From: a virus
Length of the DNA stretch: 64,000 nucleotides
IMG/VR virus record: IMGVR_UViG_3300029787_000003
Location: 37,218-101,217 of that record
Direction: 5' to 3' (one strand)
Part shown: piece after piece, positions 33,142 to 53,750 of the stretch
Layout: every line of letters begins with the position of its first letter
How positions within the stretch are numbered: position 1 is the stretch's first letter
Notes under the pieces: generated by a model
The model's input: the letters and a program-made list of their open reading frames with translations, nothing else
The model's database searches: none
What the model was told of the DNA's origin: nothing
Translations under genes and position numbers: made by a program

Positions 33142-33198
33142 AAACCAATTACAAAAGTGTCACACACCCTCGACCAGAGGGTTTTTTTGTGTTATAAT
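33142..33198 (+). promoter_or_regulatory. Palindrome-box promoter module 1
   Basis: AAACCAA-TTACAAAA-GTGTCAC, 29 nt, TATAAT. Confidence 0.7.
33166..33188 (+). terminator. Terminator-like hairpin inside the promoter spacer
   Basis: ACCCTC-GACCA-GAGGGT followed by a T run. Confidence 0.65.
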
Positions 33199-33220
33199 AA
33201 GGGTACGTTATGAGAGATTG

Positions 33221-34408
33221 ATGCAATTAAGACCACACCAACAGGATGCCCTCGATGCAATGGAGACCCATGAAAAGGGTCAAATCATAGTACCCACAGG
33301 TGGTGGTAAGACTATCTGTATGATACAGGATGCCTTGAGAGAGTTCTCAAAGTTCCCTCAACATACCATAGTGGTCGTTGCACCTCGTATCCTACTAGCA
33401 AATCAGTTAAGTGCAGAGTTCTTAGAGTTCATCACAGATCCCGAAGTGGATGTGATGCACGTGCATAGTGGAGAGACACATCATTTCAGCACTACTAAGG
33501 TAGATGAGATTCGTGAGTTCAACTTCCATAATGCTAATAGTGGTAGAAATCAGTTAATATTCACAACATATCATTCTTTACATAGAATAGTTGAAAGTCA
33601 GATCACGATTGATACAGTATATTTTGATGAAGCACACAACAGTACACAGAGAAACTTCTTTGTGCCTACACAGGAACTCGCAACAAGTATATTCACACGT
33701 GCCTACTTCTTTACTGCAACCCCTAAGCACAGTCTCACACCTGCTAGGGCTGGTATGAATGACTCTAAGGTATATGGAGAGGTAATCTGCAATGTACCTG
33801 CACCAAAGTTAGTCAGAGAGGGTTACATACTACCACCAAAGGTTGAGATATACCAGTCTAGAATCTTGAAAAAAGATGAGTTGGTTGCTGATCGTGATTG
33901 TGAGCAAATGATAGGTGCTATTGATAACCTTAAAAAAGATAAGGTATTGATATGTGCAAAGTCAACCGCACAGATTATCAATCTACTCTATCACACACCA
34001 TTCACTCAGCAACTTGCATGGGCGAATTACTCATGGATGACTATAACATCTAAAACAGGTGCTATAATAGACGGAGAGAAGGTTAATAGAGAGACTTTCT
34101 TTGATACTCTAAGTGAGTGGGGAAAAGACCCTGAGAAGAAATTTGTTGTGTTACATCATAGCATATTATCAGAAGGTATCAACGTAAATGGTCTTGAAGC
34201 GGTCTTGTTCATGAGATCTATGGATTACATAGGTATCTCTCAAACAATTGGCCGTGTGATACGTAAGGGCAATGCAGACAAAGTGTTCGGACTTGTTTGC
34301 GTACCAGTTTATTCAAACGTAGGTATCTCAACTGCACGTAAGGTACAGAATGTTGTTGATACAATATTCAACAAAGGAGAGCCTGCTATTTCAACAGTAA
34401 GAAAATGA
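33221..34408 (+). CDS. SF2 helicase/ATPase (type III restriction Res-like)
   Basis: PTGGGKT, DEAH, FTATP, LSEGIN, QTIGRVIR; ATG 33221 lies after the promoter. Confidence 0.85.
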   Translation: MQLRPHQQDALDAMETHEKGQIIVPTGGGKTICMIQDALREFSKFPQHTIVVVAPRILLANQLSAEFLEFITDPEVDVMHVHSGETHHFSTTKVDEIREFNFHNANSGRNQLIFTTYHSLHRIVESQITIDTVYFDEAHNSTQRNFFVPTQELATSIFTRAYFFTATPKHSLTPARAGMNDSKVYGEVICNVPAPKLVREGYILPPKVEIYQSRILKKDELVADRDCEQMIGAIDNLKKDKVLICAKSTAQIINLLYHTPFTQQLAWANYSWMTITSKTGAIIDGEKVNRETFFDTLSEWGKDPEKKFVVLHHSILSEGINVNGLEAVLFMRSMDYIGISQTIGRVIRKGNADKVFGLVCVPVYSNVGISTARKVQNVVDTIFNKGEPAISTVRK

Positions 34409-34848
34409 CTTCATCAATAGTATTAGTTACAGGTGGTTTTGATCCATTGCATAGTGGACATATTGCCTATTTTAAATCAGCAAAAGCAATCGCACCATTG
34501 AGTCCACTCGCTGTCGGACTCAATTCCGATCAATGGTTAGCACGTAAGAAGGGTAAACCATTCATGCCCTTAGAGGAGAGAATATCAATCGTCAGGGAAT
34601 TGAGAATGATTGATGTTGTGATTGAGTATGATGATAGTGATGGAACCAGTAATGGTGCAATAGAGCAACTATTAGAGATATACGATAAGGTTATCTTTGC
34701 AAATGGTGGAGATAGACACAATGAGAATGTACCAGAGTATGAGAAGTACAAAGATAATGAGAATGTGATCTTCCGATGGGCTGTTGGTGGTCTTAATAAG
34801 AAGAACAGTAGTTCATGGATACTTAATGAGTGGGGTAAGAATGAGTAG
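34405..34848 (+). CDS. Cytidylyltransferase-like (HxGH) nucleotidyltransferase
   Basis: TGGFDPLHSGH, GLNSD..L.RKKG, FANGGDR, KNSSS. Confidence 0.85.
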   Translation: MTSSIVLVTGGFDPLHSGHIAYFKSAKAIAPLSPLAVGLNSDQWLARKKGKPFMPLEERISIVRELRMIDVVIEYDDSDGTSNGAIEQLLEIYDKVIFANGGDRHNENVPEYEKYKDNENVIFRWAVGGLNKKNSSSWILNEWGKNE

Positions 34849-34939
34849 CGAATTACTACTGAAAATATACATGAGGGCAAAAGAGAGACCACTTGCTAAA
34901 CCTGTAAGAAAGCATTATAATGTGGCCACGTATGGTTAA
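34841..34939 (+). CDS. Small hypothetical protein, 32 aa (MSSELLLKIYMRAK...)
   Basis: Hand translation; overlaps the upstream stop and fills the gap. Confidence 0.45.
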   Translation: MSSELLLKIYMRAKERPLAKPVRKHYNVATYG

Positions 34940-34943
34940 CTAG

Positions 34944-35444
34944 ATGAATATTTTTGTTACTGACCCATCACCCTATAAATCTGCACAGGTACTACCTGAT
35001 AAGCATATCGTCAAGATGCCCTTAGAAACTTGTCAAATGCTTTCTATTGTTGCATCCGATAAGTGGGGTCGTGGTTTCGGTAAGTTACCAAAAAAGAGTG
35101 GTGGTTTCTACAAAACAGATAAAGGTGCATTTCGTAATCATCCCTGTACTATATGGGCTCAGACTAACTTCTATTGGTTAATAGAACATGGTCTTGCTTT
35201 ATGTGCAGAGTACACATACAGATATAACAAAGTCCATAGTTGTCAGTCTACTATTGAGTATGCTGATATGACGTTTCCATCTTGCCCACCACCCACAGAT
35301 TTTGTTCGTGCTATGTTTGATGAGTTTAAGTATGATGAGTCTATTGATACTTTTACTGCCTACAGAAGATATATCAATGCTAAACCATGGGTTAAGGACA
35401 ACTATCTTAGAAAACCAGAGAGAAAACCTGATTGGATAACATGA
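34944..35444 (+). CDS. denV: Pyrimidine-dimer DNA glycosylase / endonuclease V-like
   Basis: MNIFVTD, DKHIVKMPLETCQML, HPCTIW, EYTYRY.K.H. Confidence 0.7.
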   Translation: MNIFVTDPSPYKSAQVLPDKHIVKMPLETCQMLSIVASDKWGRGFGKLPKKSGGFYKTDKGAFRNHPCTIWAQTNFYWLIEHGLALCAEYTYRYNKVHSCQSTIEYADMTFPSCPPPTDFVRAMFDEFKYDESIDTFTAYRRYINAKPWVKDNYLRKPERKPDWIT

Positions 35445-36286
35445 GAGATTTAATATTATTTGGAGATTGTAGAGACACACTCACACAATTTGATGAGAAG
35501 GCAAGATGTTGTGTTACATCCCCACCTTACTATGGACTCAGGAACTATGGGGATGAGGAGAATCAAATCGGACATGAACAAACACCTGAGGAATATGTTG
35601 ATGAAATGGTCAAGGTATTCAGATTGGTTAGAGATTGTCTAACTGATGATGGTACTGTATGGTTGAACATGGGAGATAGTTATTATAACTATAGACCTGG
35701 TAAAGGTCAAGCACTTTCTAAACAAACACTAGCAAAGAATGATCAAGACCTACCAACTAAATGTGCAAGGAGAGGTAATAAACTAGATGGATTGAAAGAG
35801 AAGGACTTGATTGGTATTCCTTGGCTTCTTGCGTTTGCCCTGAGGGCTGATGGTTGGTATTTAAGACAAGATATTATCTGGAATAAACCTAATCCCATGC
35901 CCGAAAGTGTGAGAGATAGATGTACTAAATCACATGAATACATATTCTTATTAAGTAAGAGTCAGAACTATTACTTTGATGTAGATGCTATCAAAGAACC
36001 TACAAGAAGGAAGAGATCAGTATGGGATATAACTAAGAAACCATACAAAGATGCACACTTCGCTGTATTCCCACCTGATTTGATTGAACCCTGTATCAAG
36101 GCTGGTAGTGAGAGAGGAGATATAATCCTCGATCCATTTATAGGATCAGGAACTACTGCTATGGTATCTAAAGAGTTAGGAAGAGACTACATAGGTTGCG
36201 AATTACATGAAGAGTATGGTAAACTAATACAAGATAGACTACAACCATACCATAATCCCTTAGAGAAGTTTTATGAAAAAAGTTGA
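35441..36286 (+). CDS. DNA methyltransferase, beta class (N4C/N6A)
   Basis: VTSPPY, IIWNKPNPMPES, HEYIFLL, DPFIGSGTT. Confidence 0.92.
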   Translation: MRDLILFGDCRDTLTQFDEKARCCVTSPPYYGLRNYGDEENQIGHEQTPEEYVDEMVKVFRLVRDCLTDDGTVWLNMGDSYYNYRPGKGQALSKQTLAKNDQDLPTKCARRGNKLDGLKEKDLIGIPWLLAFALRADGWYLRQDIIWNKPNPMPESVRDRCTKSHEYIFLLSKSQNYYFDVDAIKEPTRRKRSVWDITKKPYKDAHFAVFPPDLIEPCIKAGSERGDIILDPFIGSGTTAMVSKELGRDYIGCELHEEYGKLIQDRLQPYHNPLEKFYEKS

Positions 36287-36749
36287 AAGACATAAGTATG
36301 ATGGCGATACGATCATAGCCACCAGAACACTTGAGTTCGATCCATTTCCTTATGAGTACATAGAGGATGTAATGAAAAAGATTGAGTGTTACCTTACACC
36401 TGACTTATTATCACACAAGAAATTGAAATATCCTGAGGATGTTATCAAATACAGATTTTATGGACATTGCTATCATTCATCACAGGCATTATATTTCCTG
36501 ATGGATACTGATAGATTGAAACCTTATAGTGGAGTCGATTGGAGAGAAGAAAAGCATTGGTGGTTACAGGATGAAGATACAATATATGATGTAACTGTTG
36601 ACCAGTATAACTGTAGAAACAAAGTACCACCTTATGATGTTGGTAAGGAGAGTAAATGGTACGGATGGAAACAGAGACCACAACAATTAACACTTGATCT
36701 CATGGTCAAAGTGTTAGGAAAGAGATTAATTAAAGATGAAGCATCCTAA
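36273..36749 (+). CDS. Hypothetical protein, possible Cys-His-Asp (transglutaminase-like) fold
   Basis: GHCYHSSQALY, HWWL, DVTVDQ. Confidence 0.6.
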   Translation: MKKVERHKYDGDTIIATRTLEFDPFPYEYIEDVMKKIECYLTPDLLSHKKLKYPEDVIKYRFYGHCYHSSQALYFLMDTDRLKPYSGVDWREEKHWWLQDEDTIYDVTVDQYNCRNKVPPYDVGKESKWYGWKQRPQQLTLDLMVKVLGKRLIKDEAS

Positions 36750-36777
36750 GTCAATTTCAAAGTAAAATTACTAAGGG

Positions 36778-36836
36778 GTAACAGTTTGCAAACTGTCACA
36801 CTAGGGGTCGCATAGACCCCTTTTTTATTATATAAT
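36778..36836 (+). promoter_or_regulatory. Palindrome-box promoter module 2
   Basis: GTAACAG-TTTGCAAA-CTGTCAC, 31 nt, TATAAT. Confidence 0.75.
36804..36826 (+). terminator. Terminator hairpin inside the promoter spacer
   Basis: GGGGTC-GCATA-GACCCC-TTTTTT. Confidence 0.75.
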
Positions 36837-36861
36837 AAAGAAGTAAACAAAGGAGAATCCT

Positions 36862-37002
36862 ATGAAGTGCGAAGTAAAACTATATGTTGCAGGAACAGTA
36901 TTTACTGAGGATGTTCATGCTGTTGACTATGCTGAAGCAAAGCGAGTCGCACTAGCAAGAAATCCTAATGCAAGAGTGATTGGTGTAAATGCGAAATTCT
37001 AA
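36862..37002 (+). CDS. Small conserved cyanophage protein, 46 aa (MKCEVKLYVAGTVF...ARNPNARV)
   Basis: Hand translation; AGGAG Shine-Dalgarno. Confidence 0.7.
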   Translation: MKCEVKLYVAGTVFTEDVHAVDYAEAKRVALARNPNARVIGVNAKF

Positions 37003-37189
37003 CTATCAAACCTTTTATAAGGATGCGATAAAGAATAAGCAAGGATACGTAACTAAAGATGGTATGTGGGCTGCTATACCATCTAACGGAAAGAAGTTTG
37101 CTATTGTTCACAATGGAGAGGTAGTACACATCTCAAGGAACTACGATAGTGCTATGAACTATATACGGAAAGAACTTAAAAGGAAATGA
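36989..37189 (+). CDS. Hypothetical protein, 66 aa
   Basis: GYVTKDGMWAAIP...IVHNG. Confidence 0.65.
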   Translation: MRNSNYQTFYKDAIKNKQGYVTKDGMWAAIPSNGKKFAIVHNGEVVHISRNYDSAMNYIRKELKRK

Positions 37190-37270
37190 GTCGTGTCTGA
37201 CCTTGACCTAGCCCCATCATCATATGAACCACCTGATGATGTACAATTACAAAATAACAGAGGTACACAA

Positions 37271-37567
37271 ATGAGAGACCAAGCATCAATCGGTAATGAA
37301 ACACCTGCAATAAAATATGATAGAGCATTATCTTTATTCACAGAGTCGGTAATGAAGCCTGACCATGACTTGAGAGGCTGTGCACACAACCAAGGATGTT
37401 ATAACGAATTGTTAGAGATAAGACAACACGTTTTAGAATACCTTAAAACATTAAAAGAAGTTACTCATCACACAAATGCTGACGAGAGTGATGAAATAGA
37501 AACTGCAAAATTGGAGTCAGCAAAATCATATTATAATAACGATCAGAAACCATATTACATACAGTAG
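37271..37567 (+). CDS. Hypothetical protein
   Basis: ALSLFTESV.KPDHDLRGCAHNQGCY; AGGT Shine-Dalgarno before ATG 37271. Confidence 0.65.
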   Translation: MRDQASIGNETPAIKYDRALSLFTESVMKPDHDLRGCAHNQGCYNELLEIRQHVLEYLKTLKEVTHHTNADESDEIETAKLESAKSYYNNDQKPYYIQ

Positions 37568-37601
37568 GTATATGTGCGTAGGCATAAATTTTTGTTAAAA
37601 T

Positions 37602-37637
37602 GTATCTGTAAATACAGACATTATTTGTCTATATAAT
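37602..37637 (+). promoter_or_regulatory. NtcA-like box GTA-N8-TAC followed 16 nt later by TATAAT
   Basis: TGTA-TCTGTAAA-TACA at 37601-37616; TATAAT at 37632-37637. Confidence 0.45.
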
Positions 37638-37714
37638 AATGAAGAGTTAGGAAAAAACAAGATGATCTAAACCATCTTTGTTATGGCGACTAATTTCAAT
37701 TTGGAGGTTCAATT

Positions 37715-37864
37715 ATGCACAACTTAATTTCCTTTAATCAGTTAGCGGGAGATCACGATGATCACCATGACGATTTAATCAAAGAGTACTACGAGTGTCT
37801 GATTGAATGTGATCAAGAACATCATGTATGTAAACGTATTTGTAAGGAGGTTTTAATTAACTAA
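37715..37864 (+). CDS. Small twin-Cys protein, 49 aa (MHNLISFNQLA...YYECLIECDQEHHVCKRICKEVL)
   Basis: Hand translation; GGAGG Shine-Dalgarno; own promoter upstream and terminator downstream. Confidence 0.75.
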   Translation: MHNLISFNQLAGDHDDHHDDLIKEYYECLIECDQEHHVCKRICKEVLIN

Positions 37865-37942
37865 CACGTAAACATCACATAGGTTAAAGGACATGGACAA
37901 GTATTTACATCCACCTTAAAGCAAACATTCATTCATTCACTA

Positions 37943-37976
37943 AACCCTTGACTTCTACAGTCAGGGGTTTTATAAT
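37943..37976 (+). terminator. Terminator hairpin that is also a sigma70 promoter
   Basis: AACCCTTGACT-TCTAC-AGTCAGGGGTT plus T run; TTGACT(37948)-17 nt-TATAAT(37971). Confidence 0.7.
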
Positions 37977-37980
37977 ATCA

Positions 37981-37988
37981 TATAAATA
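37981..37988 (+). promoter_or_regulatory. T4 late promoter TATAAATA
   Basis: Exact match upstream of 38017. Confidence 0.55.
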
Positions 37989-38016
37989 GGCTTTCATGCA
38001 ATATGCTTATGTAACA

Positions 38017-38166
38017 ATGAATGATAAACAAGCCGCAAAAAAACTTATAAAGATAGCAAGAAAGCATCCTAAATTATATAACAAAAGGGATGTATGGTAT
38101 GCTAAAATGATTAAAAAGGAACTAAAGAAAAATGACTCAGGACTCACTAAAGATCAATCGAAATAA
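38017..38166 (+). CDS. Small basic protein, 49 aa (MNDKQAAKKLIKIARKHP...)
   Basis: Hand translation. Confidence 0.6.
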   Translation: MNDKQAAKKLIKIARKHPKLYNKRDVWYAKMIKKELKKNDSGLTKDQSK

Positions 38167-38290
38167 AGATGGTTCATTTGCTGTTGAGTGGGATAAAGAA
38201 GATCCTAACTGGAAATTTATGAACACCTTGACTTCTAAAGAAATTCAAGATATTATACAAAAAGCAATGAAAGAAGATGGCCTTATCTGA
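38132..38290 (+). CDS. Small hypothetical protein, 52 aa (MTQDSLKINRNKDGSFAVEWDKEDP...)
   Basis: Hand translation; overlaps both neighbours. Confidence 0.6.
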   Translation: MTQDSLKINRNKDGSFAVEWDKEDPNWKFMNTLTSKEIQDIIQKAMKEDGLI

Positions 38291-38498
38291 TACAGTAAAA
38301 GCATCCCTAACTGATGCACAAGAAGATTTAAGAAATGCACTTGCGTATGCAGCTAGAACTGAAAAACCATTTGTAAGTAAGCACATAGCAGCCTTACTTG
38401 CTGATATAGAGAACCTTATAGATGCTAGTGATGTAATTGATAGCATCGAGAATAGGAAACTAGGAGATAGTGGACTATTTGGTACATTTTATGACTAA
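38277..38498 (+). CDS. Hypothetical protein, 73 aa
   Basis: LRNALAYAARTEKP helical pattern. Confidence 0.65.
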   Translation: MALSDTVKASLTDAQEDLRNALAYAARTEKPFVSKHIAALLADIENLIDASDVIDSIENRKLGDSGLFGTFYD

Positions 38499-38574
38499 AT
38501 TATAAAGGGATTATAAAATTTATAACTACTTTATATAACCTATGTTATAATACCAACACAAACAAGCACAGAAA

Positions 38575-38790
38575 ATGGTCAATTTAGACGAAAGATACCA
38601 CGATTACCTTATTAATGGTAAACTTATAAGGATGGATGGTGTAAGCGAAAAATTGATCGGTTATGGTTGGCATTGTGATGGAAACGAGATAAAAGGTTAC
38701 TATCTTACTACAGAGAACCATAAATTATATTATAATACAAACCAAGTATATCAGTACAAAGAAACACTTAAGGAGAAAGTTAATGTCTAA
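38575..38790 (+). CDS. Hypothetical protein, 71 aa
   Basis: LDERYHDY...GYGWHCDG; TATAAT at 38546. Confidence 0.65.
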   Translation: MVNLDERYHDYLINGKLIRMDGVSEKLIGYGWHCDGNEIKGYYLTTENHKLYYNTNQVYQYKETLKEKVNV

Positions 38791-39049: not shown

Positions 39050-39070
39050 TTAACCAATATAAATTATATT

Positions 39071-40798: not shown

Positions 40799-41770
40799 AT
40801 GATCGAGATAAAGCAACAGCCTGCTGAGAAGATTGGAGATATAGAGCAAGATTTTGATTTAATATACATGGATCCACCTTTCGGATTACAACGTGAGTTT
40901 ACTATGGTCGAGAAAGATGGAGAGAAGAAGGGATTTGCTGATCAATGGGATTCATTTGATGATTACATGGTGTGGTATGCAAATATTATTATAAAATCAT
41001 ATTATAAGTTAAAGAAGGATGGATGGTTATACTTACATAATAACTTTATCAACAATGCTTTAGTATTATCTAAAGTAACTGCTGAAATTCGTAATAATTT
41101 CTATACAAATATATCATGGAAGAGATCAGGGCCTAAGAATAATATTAAGAATGGATGGGGGAATATTGTAGATTCTATCATGGTTATTCAGAAAGGCAAC
41201 CCCTATTTTGAAGTTGAATATACATCACTAGACCCAATATATGAAGCAAATAGTTTTAAAAATAAGGATGAGAATGGATTTTATGCACTAGCAAAAGTTA
41301 CAGGAGAGAAGAGCAGGCCGTGTGCTAAGTATGAGTATAAGGGTTATAACCCTGAGTATGGATTCAGAATAACACAAGAGAAACTCAAAGGACTAGACGA
41401 TCAGAACTTACTACATTATGGTAAGAATATGTTATACAAAAAGATATACTCTCATGAGTCTAAGGGAGTTCCAGTTCAGAACTTCTGGGATGATGTATAT
41501 TTTATATCGAGGAGTGAGAAGAACAAGAGAAAGTATCCTACTCAGAAACCTCTAAAACTATTAGAAAGAATAATCAAATCAAGTTGCCCACCTGACGGAT
41601 GGGTACTGGATCCTTTTTGTGGATCAGGAACAACTGCTATAGCATCTTTGAACCTTGATAGAAATTGTATCACAACTGACGTGAACCCTGACGCAATCAA
41701 GATGGCCGATGTGGCAGTAAAAGAACTGTCACAAGAGAAGTTGAATCCTCTGGTTGAGGTGCTATATTAA
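40799..41770 (+). CDS. DNA adenine methyltransferase, beta class
   Basis: YMDPPF, ISWKR, YPTQKPLKLLERII, DPFCGSGTT. Confidence 0.92.
   Translation: MIEIKQQPAEKIGDIEQDFDLIYMDPPFGLQREFTMVEKDGEKKGFADQWDSFDDYMVWYANIIIKSYYKLKKDGWLYLHNNFINNALVLSKVTAEIRNNFYTNISWKRSGPKNNIKNGWGNIVDSIMVIQKGNPYFEVEYTSLDPIYEANSFKNKDENGFYALAKVTGEKSRPCAKYEYKGYNPEYGFRITQEKLKGLDDQNLLHYGKNMLYKKIYSHESKGVPVQNFWDDVYFISRSEKNKRKYPTQKPLKLLERIIKSSCPPDGWVLDPFCGSGTTAIASLNLDRNCITTDVNPDAIKMADVAVKELSQEKLNPLVEVLY
41711..41768 (+). promoter_or_regulatory. Palindrome-box promoter module 3
   Basis: GTGGCAG-TAAAAGAA-CTGTCAC, 30 nt, TATATT; TTGAAT at 41741. Confidence 0.7.
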
Positions 41771-41879: not shown

Positions 41880-42323
41880 ATGGCCACAAGATCAAGAATT
41901 GGTTACGTCTTACCTGACGATTCAATAGTATCAGTTTACCACCATTGGGATGGATACCCTGAGTGGTTAGGTGTTACTCTTAACAGAGAATACAATACAG
42001 AAGAGAAAGTAAGAAAACTCATTGATGGTGGTAACATGAGTAATTGTTGGTCAGATAGTAAATTTAATACAGAAACAAAAGAATTTGATAAGGTAGAACC
42101 TCATGTAAATTATTATGATGGGGATGATGAGAGACCAGAAATATCAGCAACCAGACAAGAGGCTGCTGAGTTGAATTGGGATGCTGAGTTCATCTATTTC
42201 TTTATGAATGGAAATTGGGAATGTTTCTCTATAAACAACAAATTGGATAAAGAGGGTACAGTAGTAGAGTCCACCATACTACCAGTAGAAATACCAGCAG
42301 GGGATGTTGCAGATGACAGTTAA
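41880..42323 (+). CDS. Conserved phage hypothetical protein
   Basis: MATRSRIG...SVYHHWDGYPEWLG...EFIYFF. Confidence 0.75.
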   Translation: MATRSRIGYVLPDDSIVSVYHHWDGYPEWLGVTLNREYNTEEKVRKLIDGGNMSNCWSDSKFNTETKEFDKVEPHVNYYDGDDERPEISATRQEAAELNWDAEFIYFFMNGNWECFSINNKLDKEGTVVESTILPVEIPAGDVADDS

Positions 42324-42370
42324 ATAACTGTCACATCCGATATTGTACTATGATGTAAAACTGCTATAAT
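42313..42370 (+). promoter_or_regulatory. Palindrome-box promoter module 4
   Basis: ATGACAG-TTAAATAA-CTGTCAC, 30 nt, TATAAT. Confidence 0.75.
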
Positions 42371-42551: not shown

Positions 42552-42665
42552 ATGTCTCAAACTTTCGCTGAGTTCCTACTCGACAACGCATCTACAGGAA
42601 ATGAGATTCTCTCAGTTCTTGATGATATTGTAGAGGTAACTGAAACAGGAGGAACTGACCTATAG
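42552..42665 (+). CDS. Acidic micropeptide, 37 aa (MSQTFAEFLLDNAS...)
   Basis: Last 37 codons of track ORF 42375, beginning just after the RNA element. Confidence 0.55.
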   Translation: MSQTFAEFLLDNASTGNEILSVLDDIVEVTETGGTDL

Positions 42666-42722
42666 GCCAGTTAAATAAGTGGAACAAGGCCCCTACACAG
42701 GGGTCTTGTTTTCTATTATAAT
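42664..42722 (+). promoter_or_regulatory. Palindrome-box promoter module 5 with internal hairpin
   Basis: AGGCCAG-TTAAATAA-GTGGAAC, 31 nt, TATAAT; hairpin at 42683-42710. Confidence 0.7.
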
Positions 42723-43474: not shown

Positions 43475-43711
43475 ATGATTACAGCATTTTGGACAGGAGT
43501 TGTTGTAGCAATTCCAACTTCACTTATCACAATGAAGTTACTGAACAGTTCACTCTTTATAAGTAATACTGAATTAAGAGAAGCTAATGCAAAGATAAGT
43601 CTCATCATTAATAACCTTGATGACTTCCGAGAGGAGAGAATGAAGGATAAAATGGAGAGATTAGGCATTACAGACAAACTTGACCCCAGATTATCCACTA
43701 AAATCAAATGA
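43475..43711 (+). CDS. Small membrane-anchored protein
   Basis: Hydrophobic N-terminus followed by a coiled coil; GGAGG Shine-Dalgarno. Confidence 0.6.
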   Translation: MITAFWTGVVVAIPTSLITMKLLNSSLFISNTELREANAKISLIINNLDDFREERMKDKMERLGITDKLDPRLSTKIK

Positions 43712-43998
43712 AGCAACTAACACAACAACAACGTGATGACCTTATCACTCAGTATATTGAAATTGTAGTAGATAGTATGAGTGTTGATGAACTTGTGAAC
43801 TTAGGCATGAATAAACTACAACAAGAGTTCAATTCTTATGACTTAGATGAACTAAGGGGGAAAATAGGTCAGTATGACCCTGAGTTGTTTGATGAGTTAG
43901 TTGATAATGTACTGTACATAGACTCAAAACGCAAGCCCTTTGAACCAGTTGATAAAGTGTCCACTACACACGTACGTAAGGACTTAGACTTGCTATAA
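43708..43998 (+). CDS. Hypothetical protein
   Basis: ATGA coupling; acidic and helical. Confidence 0.6.
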   Translation: MKQLTQQQRDDLITQYIEIVVDSMSVDELVNLGMNKLQQEFNSYDLDELRGKIGQYDPELFDELVDNVLYIDSKRKPFEPVDKVSTTHVRKDLDLL

Positions 43999-43999
43999 T
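43942..43999 (+). promoter_or_regulatory. Palindrome-box promoter module 6
   Basis: GAACCAG-TTGATAAA-GTGTCCA, 30 nt, TATAAT-AAGTACATA. Confidence 0.7.
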
Positions 44000-45265: not shown

Positions 45266-45580
45266 ATGTCTTTATACACAAAACACAATATTCCACTAAC
45301 AGAGTCACAAATTTCGATAATTTGTTATACTTTAGAGGATTATATGGCCAGAGGATCAGGCAATACGTCAAGTGACCCTGACTTACCTAAAGAAGTTGAT
45401 GATATCATTGAACTCTTAGAGGGAACTGTTGATAAGTATTATGAAGAGTTAGAAAAGAAGAAGGCCAAGCAACCTACTATGGAGTGGGATGATGGATTCA
45501 CTCATTATAGTGAGTGTGTGGATAAATTGGTTGATGATATGAACAGTTCAGAAAGTGTCACACCTGGCCTTACAGACTGA
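45266..45580 (+). CDS. Hypothetical acidic protein
   Basis: Track ORF; TATGAT at 45234. Confidence 0.6.
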   Translation: MSLYTKHNIPLTESQISIICYTLEDYMARGSGNTSSDPDLPKEVDDIIELLEGTVDKYYEELEKKKAKQPTMEWDDGFTHYSECVDKLVDDMNSSESVTPGLTD

Positions 45581-45598
45581 TGAGCCTTCTGTTATAAT
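45540..45598 (+). promoter_or_regulatory. Palindrome-box promoter module 7
   Basis: TGAACAG-TTCAGAAA-GTGTCAC, 31 nt, TATAAT-AAGTATATA. Confidence 0.7.
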
Positions 45599-47930: not shown

Positions 47931-48078
47931 GGTCAGATCTTATGCAAGTTTAGCGAGCGTAGCATGAGACGAGCGTTTCGTCAAGGCCACGGATCGAAAT
48001 TTTCCCAGAGAAGGCAGGTTTTATGTGTATTTCGTTACATTATAAGCACTTATAGTATAAATATACTACATTGTGTTG

Positions 48079-48115
48079 ACTACGAGATCTTTACTACGAG
48101 ATTTCACTACGAGAT
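48079..48115 (+). repeat. Three tandem ACTACGAGAT repeats (iteron-like)
   Basis: Copies at 48079, 48093 and 48106; more (Y)ACGAGAT variants out to 48343. Confidence 0.75.
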
Positions 48116-48117
48116 AC

Positions 48118-48146
48118 TTGACAATCTAGTCGAGATCATGTATAAT
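48118..48146 (+). promoter_or_regulatory. Consensus sigma70 promoter
   Basis: TTGACA-17 nt-TATAAT immediately after the repeats. Confidence 0.8.
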
Positions 48147-48182
48147 CATTATATACAAAGCTCAATTCTCTACTAGATTCTC

Positions 48183-48335
48183 ATGGAAGATTACGTTTGG
48201 GACTACGAGATCTCCTGCCACGATCTCGACGAGAATTACACATACAATATGCAAGATGACATGCATGATCTCGACGAGGAATACGCACGAGATTCATACA
48301 CATACACAGAGCTTGCATATGTACATTATGCGTAA
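48183..48335 (+). CDS. Acidic, Tyr-rich micropeptide, 50 aa (MEDYVWDYEISCHDLDENY...)
   Basis: Hand translation; downstream of the consensus promoter; internal HDLDE repeat. Confidence 0.5.
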   Translation: MEDYVWDYEISCHDLDENYTYNMQDDMHDLDEEYARDSYTYTELAYVHYA

Positions 48336-48402
48336 TACGAGATATGTGTACATTCACGTACATACATAATGATACATTCGTACTAGACACACACATTCCT
48401 AC

Positions 48403-48460
48403 ATTATAGCACGTGGGTCATGTGATGGTGCATGGTGTGTGCAGGTTTATGAGGTGTCAC
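48403..48460 (-). promoter_or_regulatory. Palindrome-box promoter module, leftward
   Basis: Minus strand: GTGACAC-CTCATAAA-CCTGCAC, 30 nt, TATAAT. Confidence 0.55.
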
Positions 48461-48623
48461 AACCTCTTTTTTTATTTCTTTTCATTCTCAATAAGGATTC
48501 GTTATTGATTCTCATTAAGTTTTTGTTATTGAGAATGTTACTTAGTGTTGCTAATAATATTTCATCGCAGGGGCCGTGACGAAGATTTTATAGTTCGTAC
48601 CCCCGAACTTTTTTCATACCTTT

Positions 48624-48681
48624 ATTATAACACCTCGGCCGACCTTTTCAACCAGCTGAGTGCCACTAATTTAAGTGTCAC
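48624..48681 (-). promoter_or_regulatory. Leftward promoter sharing the palindrome of module 8
   Basis: Minus-strand TATAAT (48629-48624) 30 nt from the palindrome; TTGAAA 16 nt upstream of it. Confidence 0.6.
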
Positions 48682-48717
48682 ATGAAATCCCCATTCGTGG
48701 TGGATCTGGTTTATATT
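48660..48717 (+). promoter_or_regulatory. Palindrome-box promoter module 8
   Basis: GTGCCAC-TAATTTAA-GTGTCAC, 30 nt, TATATT. Confidence 0.7.
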
Positions 48718-48723
48718 AAGTGT

Positions 48724-48942
48724 ATGGAAAATTTTTTAACGATCAACGGGAAATCTTATTCTCACAAACAGATAAATCTGATTCGTGATTTTTTCACGGA
48801 CGATCAGTGGACTGTCATAGACGGTGCGTTGAGTGAGTTCAAGGATCATGATCCAGATTATCTTGAGGAGGTCTACGGATCTGAAAACATTCTCACGGAA
48901 ACTTTGGATATCATCTCTGAAGTTTACCGTAGTGCCTACTAA
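48724..48942 (+). CDS. Small acidic protein (MENFLTINGKSYS...)
   Basis: ATG immediately after the promoter, so probably leaderless or nearly so. Confidence 0.65.
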   Translation: MENFLTINGKSYSHKQINLIRDFFTDDQWTVIDGALSEFKDHDPDYLEEVYGSENILTETLDIISEVYRSAY

Positions 48943-48990
48943 CAAACTGGCACACCACCTCTTGCAAAAGAGGGCGGCCTAGATTATATT
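48932..48990 (+). promoter_or_regulatory. Palindrome-box promoter module 9
   Basis: GTGCCTA-CTAACAAA-CTGGCAC, 31 nt, TATATT; TTGCAA 17 nt upstream of the -10. Confidence 0.7.
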
Positions 48991-48995
48991 AGAAA

Positions 48996-49077
48996 TGTGG
49001 CAGGATCTATCGTAGTTATGACACGGTTGGATTTATCCGTAAAAGATACCGTTAGGATCATAGAACGTAAGACCACA
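48996..49077 (+). ncRNA. Candidate structured leader RNA
   Basis: TGTGG/CCACA, TCTAT/ATAGA and ACGGT/ACCGT nested stems. Confidence 0.4.
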
Positions 49078-49100
49078 CGCAAACCACACCACAAAAACAC

Positions 49101-49232
49101 ATGGAATACGAAGACCTCTTGTTGCAAGAATTGATGGAAACACCTGGTGAACTCTACGACCTGCCAGAAATGAAGCAGGATGACAAGTTCGATGTTGAAT
49201 CGTATATTGAGAAATCCGATTTTACGTGGTGA
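49101..49232 (+). CDS. Acidic micropeptide, 43 aa (MEYEDLLLQELMETP...)
   Basis: Hand translation. Confidence 0.55.
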   Translation: MEYEDLLLQELMETPGELYDLPEMKQDDKFDVESYIEKSDFTW

Positions 49233-49249
49233 TCAAATAATATTAAACA

Positions 49250-49387
49250 ATGAAATCACAAGTAACCCTAAAAAACACCAAAGCAGAAATCTTTCAAGCC
49301 TTTTTACAAAATAGAGACGCATTGGAGGAGAGGAACTGTTTAGTTATCCTTAGTATAGTTCTTTTTTGTTTCGTTTGTCTCACGTAG
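49250..49387 (+). CDS. Micropeptide with C-terminal TM segment, 45 aa (MKSQVTLKNTKAEIF...)
   Basis: Hand translation. Confidence 0.5.
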   Translation: MKSQVTLKNTKAEIFQAFLQNRDALEERNCLVILSIVLFCFVCLT

Positions 49388-49444
49388 TAGACAGTTATTA
49401 AAGTGGCCTATCTGTACACACAGAGGGTCATTTTTTGTTATAAT
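49388..49444 (+). promoter_or_regulatory. Palindrome-box promoter module 10
   Basis: TAGACAG-TTATTAAA-GTGGCCT, 29 nt, TATAAT. Confidence 0.65.
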
Positions 49445-49472
49445 GAGTATGTACACAAAAACACATTAGTAA

Positions 49473-49637
49473 ATGAGTTACACAAGAAACGAACGAGCTC
49501 TGTTAAATCTACAGAACGATATCAACAAATTATTTGATTATGTTGGTGAAGAAAACGACCAAATTCCATTCACCTCGTTAAGAACATTTGAAAAGGCTTG
49601 TGTTGCATTCGTTAACGCTATTGAGGTTGAGTCATGA
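49473..49637 (+). CDS. Small protein, 54 aa (MSYTRNERALLNL...)
   Basis: Hand translation; ATGA coupling to the next ORF. Confidence 0.55.
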   Translation: MSYTRNERALLNLQNDINKLFDYVGEENDQIPFTSLRTFEKACVAFVNAIEVES

Positions 49638-49900
49638 TAGGTACCGCACCAACAATGAGAATGTATGAGTCAATACACCTTGGCCATACATTTTGGATAG
49701 ACGATGACGGCCTGTTCATGAGTTGCCCAACTTTCAAGGATGGATCCGTGGATATGGAAAATGCGGTGAGCGTGTACGACTGGGAGAACTGGGAAGAGGC
49801 CCACCCACATTTACCACACTTAATGCACGTGAACCAGATTTGTATACTAAAGAGAGACTCAGATAAGATAGACTATTATTCAAAATTATTCGCACAATAG
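49634..49900 (+). CDS. Hypothetical protein
   Basis: FWIDDDGLFMSCPTFKDGSVD. Confidence 0.65.
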   Translation: MIGTAPTMRMYESIHLGHTFWIDDDGLFMSCPTFKDGSVDMENAVSVYDWENWEEAHPHLPHLMHVNQICILKRDSDKIDYYSKLFAQ

Positions 49901-49958
49901 TGGCCAGTAATTAAACTGTCCACCATCACCCCACTATCACCTGATCCTAGGTTATAGT
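49901..49958 (+). promoter_or_regulatory. Palindrome-box promoter module 11
   Basis: TGGCCAG-TAATTAAA-CTGTCCA, 30 nt, TATAGT-AAGTACATA. Confidence 0.7.
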
Positions 49959-49985
49959 AAGTACATACAACAAAAGGAGCAAATT

Positions 49986-50210
49986 ATGCAACTCACCCCA
50001 ATTGCGTCAAACATGACACAAGTTGATCTCAACGGTTTTCAAGTTTTATTTTCATATAGAACCCCTGTTGCCTGTATATCTGATGATAACCAATATTATA
50101 GAACAGAAAAGTTTTGGTCAGTTACCACCAGTAGACACATTAACAAATGGTTAGATGGTGAAGTAGCAGCAGAGCAACCCCAAACATATTTCGACAATTT
50201 GGCCAATTAA
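49986..50210 (+). CDS. Conserved phage hypothetical protein
   Basis: VLFSYRTPVA...WSVTTSRHINKW. Confidence 0.7.
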   Translation: MQLTPIASNMTQVDLNGFQVLFSYRTPVACISDDNQYYRTEKFWSVTTSRHINKWLDGEVAAEQPQTYFDNLAN

Positions 50211-50257
50211 CAGGCTGTCCACTATAGCCCCATTCGTGATGCGTTTGGGGTTATAAT
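50200..50257 (+). promoter_or_regulatory. Palindrome-box promoter module 12
   Basis: TGGCCAA-TTAACAGG-CTGTCCA, 30 nt, TATAAT-AAGTATGTA. Confidence 0.7.
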
Positions 50258-50283
50258 AAGTATGTACACAAATGAAGGACTCT

Positions 50284-50418
50284 ATGACCTACACTACCGA
50301 CCAATTCAACAAAGACGTTTCAGAGTTGAGAAGATTGATAAAAATGTGCGACGATTTACAGAAGAAGCAAGATAAAAACACAACTTACTTAATAAACCAA
50401 TTCAACGGAGGTAAGTAA
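50284..50418 (+). CDS. Small protein, 44 aa (MTYTTDQFNKDVSEL...)
   Basis: Hand translation; AGGA Shine-Dalgarno. Confidence 0.55.
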   Translation: MTYTTDQFNKDVSELRRLIKMCDDLQKKQDKNTTYLINQFNGGK

Positions 50419-50421
50419 TCA

Positions 50422-51354
50422 ATGAAAAATATACACTTAGAACACCCCGAAGACACAATTTTAACAGGAGATCTATCCGTATTAGATGCGTTAGAGTTAG
50501 AGCAGGAAATATCCGTCAAGTATGACGGAGCTCCCGCTATCGTATGGGGAAAGAACCCAGCCACAGGCCGTCAGTTCGTAGGCACGAAATCCGTATTTAA
50601 TAAAGTTAAAATCAAGATTTGTGAAAGCCCAGCTGATGTAATGACTCATTACGAGGGCCACCCTGTTCAAGATATTTTACTTGAGTGTTTGAAATACTTA
50701 CCAGACACAGAAAATATCTATCAAGGTGATTTTATCGGCTTCGGTGGTGAAACAGAATATCAGCCAAATACTTTGGTTTATGATTTTGATGATGAAGTAA
50801 AAGAACAAATAATAGTAGCTCCACATACACAGTACACCACAACAACAACTTTAAAAGATGCAGAAGCAAAACCAATTAAGTCTAATCTTGACGGCACTTT
50901 TGACTGTTTATTCATTAAGCCTAACGCAGGTACTAGTATAGGCCAATACAATAGATACGGATCTAAGTTTGATTTTAAAAACTATCTTAAGTTCGTTAAA
51001 CAGATGGCCAGCATGGTTACGTTTTTAACTGCAACAGATGCAAAAGCCATGAAAACTGAATTAAATAGGTATATCAGAAATGGCCATTATATTCACCCCG
51101 AAGATTTCGGTAATGAGTTATTAATTTCGTTGTGGGTGAGTGTTAAAAACTTAAAGATGATGGCTTTGAGCCAGTGCCGTCATAGGTGGGGCCCTGATGC
51201 GTACTTGATGGATGAGGGAGGAAACCCAGAGCTTATTGATGCTGAGGGCTACGTAATTCATAATAAAATAGGATCATACAAATTAATCGACAGAGAATGG
51301 TTTAGCCATGCAAACTTTAACAACACCAGATGGGCCAATGCGAAAACTAACTGA
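50422..51354 (+). CDS. Unknown protein with ligase/nucleotidyltransferase-like motifs (DUF6267-like)
   Basis: HLEHPED, SVKYDGAP, YQGDF, EGYVI, YKLIDR. Confidence 0.7.
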   Translation: MKNIHLEHPEDTILTGDLSVLDALELEQEISVKYDGAPAIVWGKNPATGRQFVGTKSVFNKVKIKICESPADVMTHYEGHPVQDILLECLKYLPDTENIYQGDFIGFGGETEYQPNTLVYDFDDEVKEQIIVAPHTQYTTTTTLKDAEAKPIKSNLDGTFDCLFIKPNAGTSIGQYNRYGSKFDFKNYLKFVKQMASMVTFLTATDAKAMKTELNRYIRNGHYIHPEDFGNELLISLWVSVKNLKMMALSQCRHRWGPDAYLMDEGGNPELIDAEGYVIHNKIGSYKLIDREWFSHANFNNTRWANAKTN

Positions 51355-51604
51355 CACGGAATTTAACTATCTTAAGGAGCTCTACGTTGACAGAATCGTA
51401 GAGGGCATGATGACAAAAGACTTAGTTCGTTATGTTATGGAACGCGAGCAAGAGTGGATCGACTCTTTAACCTATACTGAGGCTATGGATGAGTTGGAAA
51501 GTTATTTTGACGAAATGTTCACGGATACTGTAGAGGAAGCCCTAGCCGATGTCAAGGAATTTGGGCCAGATTACAAACCGTCCACTGAAGACACACGTTT
51601 CTAG
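51338..51604 (+). CDS. Small acidic protein (MRKLTDTEF...)
   Basis: Internal ATG of track ORF 51308. Confidence 0.6.
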   Translation: MRKLTDTEFNYLKELYVDRIVEGMMTKDLVRYVMEREQEWIDSLTYTEAMDELESYFDEMFTDTVEEALADVKEFGPDYKPSTEDTRF

Positions 51605-51619
51605 CCAATGCGTTATAAT
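51563..51619 (+). promoter_or_regulatory. Palindrome-box promoter module 13
   Basis: GGGCCAG-ATTACAAA-CCGTCCA, 29 nt, TATAAT-AAGTACATA. Confidence 0.7.
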
Positions 51620-51645
51620 AAGTACATACACAAAAGGATTTCTTT

Positions 51646-52062
51646 ATGACTTCATTAGACACAACACTAGGCACTTCAGAGTTAACCGAAGAGTTAATTA
51701 AAGAGTACATAGAGGATGAGGGCTATGAGAGAGAAGATATGGAGGAATTCATCAAGGAGCACGGTGACAGGGCTTTCCAGTTAGATTATCAGGACTATTT
51801 GGCCGCAATTGATGATATGGGCTCTGAAGTAGTCGAAGCATTTATTGAGGAGTTTTCAATCAATGACGTAAGTAGCTGCCGTGATGCGTACATGGGCTGT
51901 TACAGATCAGGTGCAGAATTTGCAGAGCAAATGGCCTCCGACTGTGGCGAAGTGATGAACCCGATGGCCAGCTGGATAGAGATCGACTGGGAGAAGAGCT
52001 GGGAAAATTTATCCTACGACTATTGCGAATACGACGGACACATATTCAGCCAGTATTATTAG
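51646..52062 (+). CDS. ArdA-like antirestriction protein (acidic DNA mimic)
   Basis: Very acidic; AYMGCYRSGAEFAEQ...WIEIDWEKSWENL..DY resembles the ArdA C-terminal domain. Confidence 0.6.
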   Translation: MTSLDTTLGTSELTEELIKEYIEDEGYEREDMEEFIKEHGDRAFQLDYQDYLAAIDDMGSEVVEAFIEEFSINDVSSCRDAYMGCYRSGAEFAEQMASDCGEVMNPMASWIEIDWEKSWENLSYDYCEYDGHIFSQYY

Positions 52063-52105
52063 TGGCACACGGGCCCTTTCATTAGGGCCCATTATCCCTT
52101 ATAAT
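52047..52105 (+). promoter_or_regulatory. Palindrome-box promoter module 14
   Basis: CAGCCAG-TATTATTA-GTGGCAC, 31 nt, TATAAT. Confidence 0.7.
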
Positions 52106-52136
52106 AAGAATAACAAACAAACAAAGTTTTAAAACT

Positions 52137-52421
52137 ATGTACGATCCAAACGACCTAAAGGAATTAACTTCAGACATTATGTACACAGAAAGAGTGATCC
52201 GCAAGCCAAACAAAGTCGTAAGATATTATTTTGAAAATGGATATGGAGCCAGCGTAGCATGCCATGAGGGATCATATGGTGGCCCAGATGGACTGTATGA
52301 AATGGCCCTGTTGAAAGGAGATAATTTACATTATGACGAAAGCGGGATTTGGGCTGATGTAATAGGCTATCTCACATTTGCGGAAGTTTGGGCATATATG
52401 AAGGAGATTGCAGAGTATTAG
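52137..52421 (+). CDS. Conserved phage hypothetical protein
   Basis: FENGYGASV..H..SYGG..GLYEMALL. Confidence 0.7.
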   Translation: MYDPNDLKELTSDIMYTERVIRKPNKVVRYYFENGYGASVACHEGSYGGPDGLYEMALLKGDNLHYDESGIWADVIGYLTFAEVWAYMKEIAEY

Positions 52422-52479
52422 GCCACTTCACAAAGTGGCACTCAACTGCTTGCAAAGTGACCCCTTTTGTGTGTATAAT
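52420..52479 (+). promoter_or_regulatory. Palindrome-box promoter module 15
   Basis: AGGCCAC-TTCACAAA-GTGGCAC, 32 nt, TATAAT; TTGCAA at -35. Confidence 0.7.
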
Positions 52480-52514
52480 AGTAGTATACAAAGTTCAAAA
52501 CAGATTTAAAAATT

Positions 52515-52691
52515 ATGTTCACTATTCAAAAATTCATCGAAGTTCCAAATACAAATATTAAGGAACCTGTCACAGGTTTTGCTGATGACCTATGCTACGA
52601 CATGGCACAGCAATTTGGTCATGCTCAAATCGTTTGGTATGCTCTAAACGGAAACCGCGTTGTTGACGGAGAGTATACAGACAAAGACTAA
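52515..52691 (+). CDS. Small protein, 58 aa (MFTIQKFIEVP...)
   Basis: Hand translation. Confidence 0.6.
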   Translation: MFTIQKFIEVPNTNIKEPVTGFADDLCYDMAQQFGHAQIVWYALNGNRVVDGEYTDKD

Positions 52692-52736
52692 ACTGTCACA
52701 CGGGCCCTTCCATTAGGGCCCATTATCCATTATAAT
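52678..52736 (+). promoter_or_regulatory. Palindrome-box promoter module 16
   Basis: CAGACAA-AGACTAAA-CTGTCAC, 31 nt, TATAAT-AAGTACATA. Confidence 0.7.
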
Positions 52737-52764
52737 AAGTACATACACAAAAGGAGTTTCACAC

Positions 52765-53007
52765 ATGATCCAAACAAAGACAGAAAGATTAATAAACAGA
52801 ATCAAAGAAAAAGAGTCATTCAATGACGTGGCTTATGTTTGCGAAGATTTCGAAACATTTATTGAAGAAGTGGCTGAGTGGGGAGTAGACCACGCAGCAG
52901 GAGTTGACTTTGACGACCCAGAGCTAAACCTTGAGCAGTTAGACGCATATTTTGCATCTTTCGGCTGCACACCTTCAAACCCTCATCCAGCTGGGAGGTA
53001 CGCATAA
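52765..53007 (+). CDS. Small acidic protein
   Basis: Track ORF; AGGAG Shine-Dalgarno. Confidence 0.65.
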   Translation: MIQTKTERLINRIKEKESFNDVAYVCEDFETFIEEVAEWGVDHAAGVDFDDPELNLEQLDAYFASFGCTPSNPHPAGRYA

Positions 53008-53156
53008 TGAGCCACCCAGTAAACGACTCAATTTTAGAAACCCTCTTTGAAGAGGCCCTCGCAGAAATCGGAATTGCTGAGGATTCCCCATTCTTTGCAG
53101 ATGCTGAGAAAATAGCAGGGGAAATGGCCATGAACAAATTCTTAGAGATGGGCTAA
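53007..53156 (+). CDS. Small acidic protein, 49 aa (MSHPVNDSILETLFEE...)
   Basis: Hand translation; TAATG coupling. Confidence 0.6.
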   Translation: MSHPVNDSILETLFEEALAEIGIAEDSPFFADAEKIAGEMAMNKFLEMG

Positions 53157-53174
53157 GAAAAGTCAAGCGGGTGA

Positions 53175-53231
53175 GTGCCACTTAATGAACTGGCCCTATA
53201 CTCACCACGCTGCCATAAAATCCGTTATAAT
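53175..53231 (+). promoter_or_regulatory. Palindrome-box promoter module 17
   Basis: GTGCCAC-TTAATGAA-CTGGCCC, 29 nt, TATAAT. Confidence 0.7.
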
Positions 53232-53259
53232 AATAGTATAAACAAAAGGAGATCCACTC

Positions 53260-53526
53260 ATGGTTCAAACAACATTCAATCTTTCAGACATAGGCACAGA
53301 TACTTACAACGGATGGAAGAACTGGACTACATGGAACGTCGCCCTATGGATTAACAATGACATGGGTTTCTATGGTGTAGCACAACAGGTGGAAACATTC
53401 GGAGAGTTTTTACTTTGGATCTTACCAGAGGACGGAACAGGCGATTTCAAAACACCTGATGGAGCAATCTGGCAGGAAGCAGATTTAACAGAAATGACAG
53501 AATTAATACAGGAGATCAAAGCATGA
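53260..53526 (+). CDS. Conserved phage hypothetical protein
   Basis: YNGWKNWTTWNVALWINND...TPDG. Confidence 0.7.
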   Translation: MVQTTFNLSDIGTDTYNGWKNWTTWNVALWINNDMGFYGVAQQVETFGEFLLWILPEDGTGDFKTPDGAIWQEADLTEMTELIQEIKA

Positions 53527-53600
53527 AACCATTAGACCCCAAAGTCTACGAAGCCCTGCTTAAAGCAGAAAAACTAAAACGTCACCTAAAGGAGCATTAA
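53523..53600 (+). CDS. Micropeptide, 25 aa (MKPLDPKVYEALLKAEKLKRHLKEH)
   Basis: Hand translation; ATGA coupling; AGGAG Shine-Dalgarno. Confidence 0.45.
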   Translation: MKPLDPKVYEALLKAEKLKRHLKEH

Positions 53601-53602
53601 AC

Positions 53603-53749
53603 ATGACAGGAATTGAACTTTTCATATTGATTGGCGGCTGCTATGCATTATACACTGTAGGAGTGGCCATTGCAACCGAAATTGATTATAGATGTGCCAA
53701 TAAAACAACTGGCCCTAAACCAACTATTATAGTGAAAAAACCATTATAA
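53603..53749 (+). CDS. Small TM protein, 48 aa (MTGIELFILIGGCYALYTVG...)
   Basis: Hand translation; AGGAG Shine-Dalgarno. Confidence 0.55.
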   Translation: MTGIELFILIGGCYALYTVGVAIATEIDYRCANKTTGPKPTIIVKKPL

Positions 53750-53750
53750 T
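53694..53750 (+). promoter_or_regulatory. Palindrome-box promoter module 18
   Basis: GTGCCAA-TAAAACAA-CTGGCCC, 29 nt, TATAAT-AAGTATATA. Confidence 0.7.

Follow-up and report, generated by a model that had tools for sequence, protein, structure and literature searches.

We describe here a repeated promoter-like cassette in a 64,000-nucleotide stretch of viral DNA (hereafter the window), which corresponds to bases 37218-101217 of the 152-kb record IMGVR_UViG_3300029787_000003 of IMG/VR. The cassette consists of a palindrome, or dyad, placed 29-32 nt ahead of a TATAAT-like box, and the window contains 18 rightward and two leftward copies of the dyad. Very probably, these cassettes form a class of promoters that lack a -35 element and carry an operator for a protein. 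They probably serve an uncultured T4-like cyanomyovirus as promoters of the early class, in which a near-consensus -10 box would be combined with a protein bound to the upstream dyad, a PlmA-type GntR regulator being the best candidate. We infer from the features of the sequence, and from comparisons with other phages and with host genomes, that the cassettes act as promoters early in infection, that the dyad serves activation and not repression, and which factor binds it.

The repeated unit of palindrome and TATAAT box is real and exceeds chance expectation. All 18 rightward sites listed in the original prediction exist, and the distance between their right arm and the TATAAT, TATATT or TATAGT box is in the range of 29-32 nt that had been claimed, with gaps of 29 nt at five sites, 30 nt at six, 31 nt at six and 32 nt at one. 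Both leftward uses are also genuine, and in both the gap measures exactly 30 nt. In a leave-one-out procedure, the position weight matrix (PWM) scores of the sites range from 12.8 to 25.7 bits. A -10-like box at a gap of 29-32 nt is present at 20/20 plus-strand sites, versus 3.0% expected at random positions, and a degenerate regular expression yielded 26 matches versus 4.6 in dinucleotide shuffles. The palindrome is not equally frequent away from -10 boxes, as all sites above 14.5 bits in the 152-kb record have one. Two more cassettes are found outside the window, at genome positions 145754 (gap 30, with a terminator-like hairpin in the spacer) and 148006 (gap 29), equivalent to window positions 108537 and 110789. 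The ordinary promoters of the TTGACA-17-TATAAT type at 4532, 48118 and 54850 were indeed found to be devoid of the palindrome, with best PWM scores of -1.4, -3.4 and -8.2, respectively.

To describe the motif, we pooled 64 non-redundant sites (128 arms) from the present genome, cyanophage Syn9 and IMG/VR relatives of the phage, which were located via their DUF6267 protein. The dyad reads G3-M4-C5-A6-S7-T8-T9, four free bases, A14-A15-S16-T17-G18-K19-C20, with A21-C22 as a further extension towards the promoter. Conservation is somewhat better in the promoter-proximal half than in the distal one. Of these sites, 30 are separated from the -10 box by 30 nt, 18 by 31 nt, 14 by 29 nt, and one each by 28 and 32 nt. 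The dyad centre is thus located 41.5 +/- 1.5 bp upstream of the -10 box, i.e., at approximately -53.5, since the -10 box is taken as spanning -12 to -7. A poor -35 had been noted in many copies, and no -35 consensus emerged from the pooled set in the interval from -23 to -18, counted from the -10 box. The cassettes therefore do not conform to the consensus sigma-70, host-like promoter with a TTGACA-like -35 at 16-18 nt, and the TGn extension of the -10 box is only partial. These features support the initial proposal of a promoter class of its own, which does without a -35 and carries a dyad operator for a dimeric factor, the centre of the dyad shifting slightly from the claimed value of approximately -52.

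As an alternative to an operator, the palindrome might act as a nucleic acid structure, either an RNA hairpin at the 3' end of the upstream transcripts, involved in their processing or stability, or a DNA cruciform. In favour of this reading are the inverted-repeat form of the palindrome, its inclusion in the upstream mRNA and its frequent position just before a terminator hairpin. However, the bases at arm positions 7 and 16 are complementary in 26/64 sites, versus 25.8 expected (p = 0.52), with G-G combinations being common, and the covariation of positions 4 and 19 has a p value of 0.07. Specific bases rather than pairings are conserved, the -10 box lies at a constant distance, and no Rfam family was detected within the 32-56 kb segment of the window. 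The lack of covariation between the arms led us to reject the hairpin or cruciform reading, which we regard as extremely improbable. It argues instead that each half-site is selected independently of the other, as expected if a dimeric protein binds there.

The segment between the dyad and the -10 box has a fixed length, as claimed, but its sequence does not vary as freely as was thought. It is C-rich and G-poor, and in 8/20 copies it forms a stable hairpin (-7 kcal/mol or lower), versus 6% of random 33-mers. About five of these eight hairpins are followed by a T-run and resemble intrinsic terminators. They are located where a -35 element would sit, inside the promoter, and many palindromes overlap the 3' end or the stop codon of the upstream open reading frame (ORF). 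Downstream of the -10 box, the AAGTA(C/T)ATA sequence described as frequent is found in its exact form in 7/18 copies, and an AAGGA Shine-Dalgarno motif is present in approximately seven. The leaders of the cassettes look alike (AAGTACATA...AAGGA). We propose that the host RNA polymerase uses the near-consensus, partly extended TGn-type -10 box without a -35, and that it would be assisted by a protein bound to the 18-22 bp dyad centred approximately 41.5 bp upstream of that box. As the spacer often houses the terminator of the upstream gene, a single compact unit would end one transcript and start the next.

The genes of the window, whose DNA is AT-rich (35% GC) and belongs to a record that is 73% complete, indicate a T4-like cyanomyovirus. 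Its tryptophan halogenase is 44% identical to the S-SSM7 counterpart, and other genes match those of Syn9, P-SSM2 and S-RIM44, although a megablast search of the region against isolate phages revealed no close relative at the DNA level. We searched other genomes with the composite pattern RMCAV-N8-STGKC-N(31-34)-TANNNT, using the same pattern backwards as a control. There are 10 matches in Syn9 (7+3), 15 in S-PM2 (14+1), 18 in P-SSM2 (11+7) and 15 in P-TIM40 (11+4), versus 0-1 for the control, and none in T4. The density amounts to 50-90 matches per Mb in cyanomyoviruses versus approximately one per Mb in hosts. This distribution across four cyanomyoviruses, with no match in T4 and few in hosts, identifies a promoter class shared by the cyanomyovirus family and conserved between genera of the Kyanoviridae. 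The IMG/VR relatives, whose proteins are from 100% to 39% identical to those of the present phage, have these cassettes too, and the gap remains within 29-32 nt. The Syn9 sites cluster among the small genes at 44.7-53 kb, and in both phages a palindrome precedes the helicase gene, at 33142 here and at 49079, before gp75, in Syn9.

Doron et al. 2016 reportedly described in Syn9 and P-TIM40 a "novel regulatory element" for early genes, which is said to be conserved among T4-like cyanophages, together with host-like middle promoters. The original prediction had guessed at a link with a cyanophage early-gene motif. This guess receives indirect support, as the same composite is present in both of these phages, near small genes of the early region, and is kept in the other T4-like cyanophages S-PM2 and P-SSM2. 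The cassettes thus very likely correspond to the early-gene element of Doron et al. 2016, although the -10 region of Syn9 is TATTCT followed by ATAAGAGTC, whereas that of the present phage is TATAAT followed by AAGTACATA. We found no open full-text paper that gives the sequence of the early motif. In this respect the feature is ordinary for the virus family, as it adds new members to a known promoter class. What our analysis adds is an exact description of the geometry, the rejection of a role as a hairpin, and the naming of a specific candidate factor that can be tested.

To our knowledge, no factor that reads the cyanophage early element has been named. T4-like cyanophages do not have the tools used by T4 to reprogramme transcription, Alt, ModA/B, MotA and AsiA. 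Because early transcription has to begin when no phage protein has yet been made, the factor should be present at infection, and the best candidate would be the universal PlmA-type GntR regulator of the host, PMM1637 in Prochlorococcus MED4. A search of five cyanomyovirus genomes revealed no GntR domain. In Prochlorococcus and marine Synechococcus, CGRE1 is a palindrome of 21-22 nt located 55-57 nt upstream of the transcription start site (TSS) of yfr2 genes (Lambrecht et al. 2018, PMC6191309). The PlmA homologue PMM1637 binds CGRE1 in electrophoretic mobility shift assays, and CGRE1 raises promoter output in a reporter system (PMC6191309), the bound protein acting as an activator.

We located yfr2 genes with the Rfam model RF01701 (Cyano-1) and collected CGRE1 instances from their upstream regions. 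They read AACTG(G/T)CAC, 1-2 nt, GTG(A/C)CAGTT. The half-site of the phage dyad, (C/T)AACTG(G/T)CAC over the 128 arms, contains the 9-nt half-site of CGRE1, including its G/T and C/G degeneracies. In addition, the GTG(A/C)CAGTT half starts approximately 52 +/- 2 nt before the -10 box both in host yfr2 promoters, whose -10 boxes are themselves inferred, and in the phage cassettes. The distal arm of the phage dyad thus coincides in place and orientation with the promoter-proximal half of CGRE1, at approximately -65 to -57. In both cases the promoter has no -35, and the placement of the upstream element agrees with the 55-57 nt of CGRE1. When the promoters are aligned on their -10 boxes, the columns of GTG(A/C)CAGTT are shared by the CGRE1-type yfr2 promoters, a second group of yfr2 promoters and the phage cassettes. 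The second group has GGACAGTT, approximately 5 nt and AGCGCCAC, with GGACAGTT falling in the columns of the phage left arm. Eight loci represent this second type (L166, L167, L202, L205, L211, L213, L217 and L223), in which GGACAGTT, approximately 5 nt and AGCGCC(A/C)C start approximately 60 nt before the start of the Rfam model. They have the equivalent of the phage distal arm and the same distance to the -10 box, without a full CGRE1.

The two elements nevertheless differ in the order of their half-sites. The phage form is everted (H', 4 nt, H), whereas that of the host is H, 1-2 nt, H'. The second half-site of the phage is found downstream of the shared half, whereas that of CGRE1 is upstream, and the phage dyad centre is approximately one helical turn nearer the -10 box. 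In the present genome, 14 pairs are everted with a 4-nt spacer, and all other combinations of orientation and spacing over 0-12 nt gave no pair. The head-to-head arrangement of CGRE1 (21-22 nt) was not found in the phage genomes, which have only the everted form.

One match to the palindrome is conserved in hosts. This phage-type palindrome, ATGACAGATGTTAAAGTGTCAC, is present in three high-light Prochlorococcus genomes (L149-L151), with scores of 17-20 bits, 58 nt before the GTG start codon of the PlmA-type GntR gene. In high-light Prochlorococcus this gene adjoins infC and corresponds to the PlmA homologue of PMC6191309. The Synechococcus orthologues (L153-L157) are preceded by two conserved elements, CAATTGTCAC at a distance of approximately 71 nt and a TGGCC...GGCC dyad at 28 nt.

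Several observations weigh against our interpretation. Given the opposite order of the half-sites, one rigid dimer could not bind CGRE1 and the phage dyad alike. PMM1637 gave no shift of its own promoter (PMC6191309), although the fragment used may have lacked the phage-type palindrome. The palindrome is not enriched in three complete Synechococcus genomes, and a strict version of the composite pattern gave zero matches in the host scan. In 121 host-family genomes neither of the two is enriched, the composite being less frequent there than the control pattern. This lack of enrichment indicates that there is no large host regulon, and that any host regulon of the phage arrangement must be tiny. 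Finally, classical activators of class I or class II do not usually have their site centred near -53.5.

Some of these observations would rather fit a protein supplied by the phage, either an activator injected with the DNA, in the manner of Alt, or an early or middle repressor of the early class, in which case the likeness to CGRE1 would result from mimicry or coincidence. The composite is specific to phages, with hosts at approximately one match per Mb and below the control, the everted order is unlike the only proven PlmA site, and PMM1637 did not bind its own promoter. However, we found no candidate DNA-binding gene, host yfr2 promoters have the same half-site at the same position, and a site at -53.5 is ill-placed for steric repression. 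A host integrative island, described below, also uses the cassette for its integrase gene and for a restriction-modification operon, which does not fit a phage-specific factor. A phage protein as the reader is in our opinion rather unlikely. The homologue of the Syn9 'transcriptional regulator' gp230 (window positions approximately 876-1115) was considered for this role and discarded, as it has no evident DNA-binding signature.

On balance, we lean towards the operator being read by a host factor. That this factor is specifically PlmA is a tentative proposal, and a host factor other than PlmA is unlikely. It is tempting to speculate that T4-like cyanophages borrow the PlmA-type GntR activator of their host for their early genes, via an everted form of CGRE1 kept in register with the yfr2 promoters, and this scenario, which the shared half-site and register make conceivable, is one possibility among others. 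This activator is linked to PipX-PII and induces yfr2 small RNAs in response to high light and nitrogen stress.

Phage-type cassettes are also found in an integrative island of low GC content (approximately 0.40-0.50) in a host-family genome (L152, G020:C1:112000-130500), at positions 2043(+), 16296(-) and 17850, and their geometry is canonical. One of them (gap 30, TAAATT) precedes a tyrosine integrase gene, and another (gap 31, TATAGT) is followed by an operon that includes the gene of a Type ISP/IIG-like methylase-restriction protein. A tblastx comparison of this island with the present phage detected no similarity. It may represent a mobile defence island responsive to infection or to PlmA.

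The original prediction also considered a role in recombination. Under this hypothesis the cassettes would primarily act as T4-type PeSL-like units, i.e., homology patches of approximately 90 bp that shuffle modules of one to three genes, promoter activity being secondary. Within the small-gene region, which is hyperplastic, the cassettes do stand out as similar stretches amid unrelated genes, their leaders are similar (AAGTACATA...AAGGA), some breaks in homology abut them (45563; 53156-53202), and metatranscriptome contigs share with the phage only the -10 box and leader core around 52725-52756. Yet, in a comparison with relatives approximately 84% identical, the nine insertion, deletion or replacement events, which define 18 edges, have approximately five edges within 35 nt of a cassette, versus approximately 3.5 expected. 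Many indels are found at plain gene boundaries (43278, 44957, 50418), and the strict geometry of 30 +/- 1 nt with a base-specific dyad across genera is what one predicts for a protein-RNA polymerase contact rather than for homology alone. A primary role in recombination is very unlikely, although the cassettes may contribute to gene shuffling. A hot spot of variation is present at 50418-50421, just before the start of the DUF6267 gene, where relatives have insertions of 200-485 bp and where contigs of three RNA runs diverge.

The PeSL cassettes of T4-type phages have a stem-loop upstream of a sigma-70 type promoter (-35, 17 nt, -10) and mark indel junctions (Arbiol 2010; Comeau 2014, PMC4122927). 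The present cassettes resemble them in that terminator and promoter are joined in a composite unit, which recurs between small genes where the genome is hyperplastic and has some indel junctions close by. They are not PeSLs in the strict sense, because the 64 pooled sites show no consensus for a -35 hexamer 17 nt from the -10 box, the hairpin is optional (8/20) and, when there is one, sits inside the promoter at the place of the -35, and a dyad operator is added upstream. Parallels are also found in activator-dependent promoters of other phages. The late promoters of P2, P4 and 186, which depend on Ogr, Delta or B, have a dyad near -55, which is nearly that of the present cassettes. The Mu Pm promoter with Mor has a dyad centred at -43.5. 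Like the cassettes, these promoters combine a good -10 with the lack of a -35, and the host RNA polymerase is recruited through an inverted repeat situated at a set distance upstream. They differ in being middle or late promoters with phage-encoded activators and unrelated sequences, whereas the present cassettes are predicted to be early.

The genes that follow the cassettes are compatible with early functions and encode a helicase, an ArdA-like anti-restriction protein, the DUF6267 protein and many small ORFs without known function. The first cassette (33142-33198, plus strand, as are the following ones unless specified), with its palindrome at 33142-33163, a terminator-like hairpin and T-run, and TATAAT at 33193-33198, precedes the helicase gene (33218-34405). 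The second one, at 36778-36836, also has a hairpin and a T-run and is followed by TATAAT (gap 31). The region also contains two N6/N4 DNA methyltransferase genes, at 35432-36283 and 40799-41770, the second of which harbours in its 3' end the palindrome of the third cassette (41711-41768; TATATT, gap 30). The fourth (42313-42370; TATAAT, gap 30) has a near-perfect palindrome whose AT-rich centre contains the stop codon of the ORF at 41880-42323, and the fifth (42664-42722; TATAAT, gap 31) has a strong hairpin of -17.6 kcal/mol followed by a T-run. The palindrome of the sixth (43942-43999; gap 30) is located within the ORF at 43708-43998, with the -10 box overlapping the stop codon. In the case of the seventh (45540-45598; gap 31), the homology to two relatives (L011 and L016) ends right after the palindrome, at 45563.

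Beyond these, the leftward cassette at 48403-48460 (minus strand) has a weaker palindrome (48439-48460; 13.7-14.5 bits) and TATAAT at 48408-48403, with a gap of 30 nt. The cassette at 48624-48717 is bidirectional, as its palindrome (48660-48681) is flanked at 30 nt on each side by TATATT (48712-48717, plus strand) and TATAAT (48629-48624, minus strand), and it is conserved in relatives. Rightward copies follow at 48932-48990 (gap 31, hairpin in the spacer), 49388-49444 (gap 29), 49901-49958 (TATAGT, gap 30) and 50200-50257 (gap 30, hairpin), the last one upstream of a small ORF and then of the DUF6267 gene (50422-51351). The cassette at 51563-51619 (gap 29) lies directly ahead of the ArdA-like gene (51646-52059; PHROG 36653, E = 8.5e-39), an arrangement that fits an early counter-defence role. 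Two cassettes have a GGGCCC hairpin, at 52047-52105 and 52678-52736 (gap 31 in both), and between them there is one at 52420-52479 (gap 32). The palindrome of the copy at 53175-53231 (gap 29) has the top score, 27.8 bits, and relatives have an insertion of 200-300 bp at 53156-53202. The last cassette is at 53694-53750 (gap 29).

The segment of the window at 48400-54400 is present in marine RNA libraries of two studies, with 93-100% identity and up to 48% of the sampled words, and the metatranscriptome hits to the region are short contigs that run across cassettes. This phage or near relatives are thus common in nature and probably transcribed there, although the carry-over of DNA could also account for these hits.

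Of the viruses that infect the main primary producers of the ocean, T4-like cyanophages count among the most abundant. If the borrowing of PlmA is confirmed, early phage transcription would be wired to the light and carbon/nitrogen status of the host, and host mobile islands with the same cassette, such as that with the integrase gene and the restriction-modification operon in G020, would be part of the same circuit. The identity of the half-sites and their common register turn the question of the factor into a direct test of PlmA binding and activation. The cassette is a compact, portable promoter-terminator unit and may also serve in the engineering of marine picocyanobacteria and their phages.

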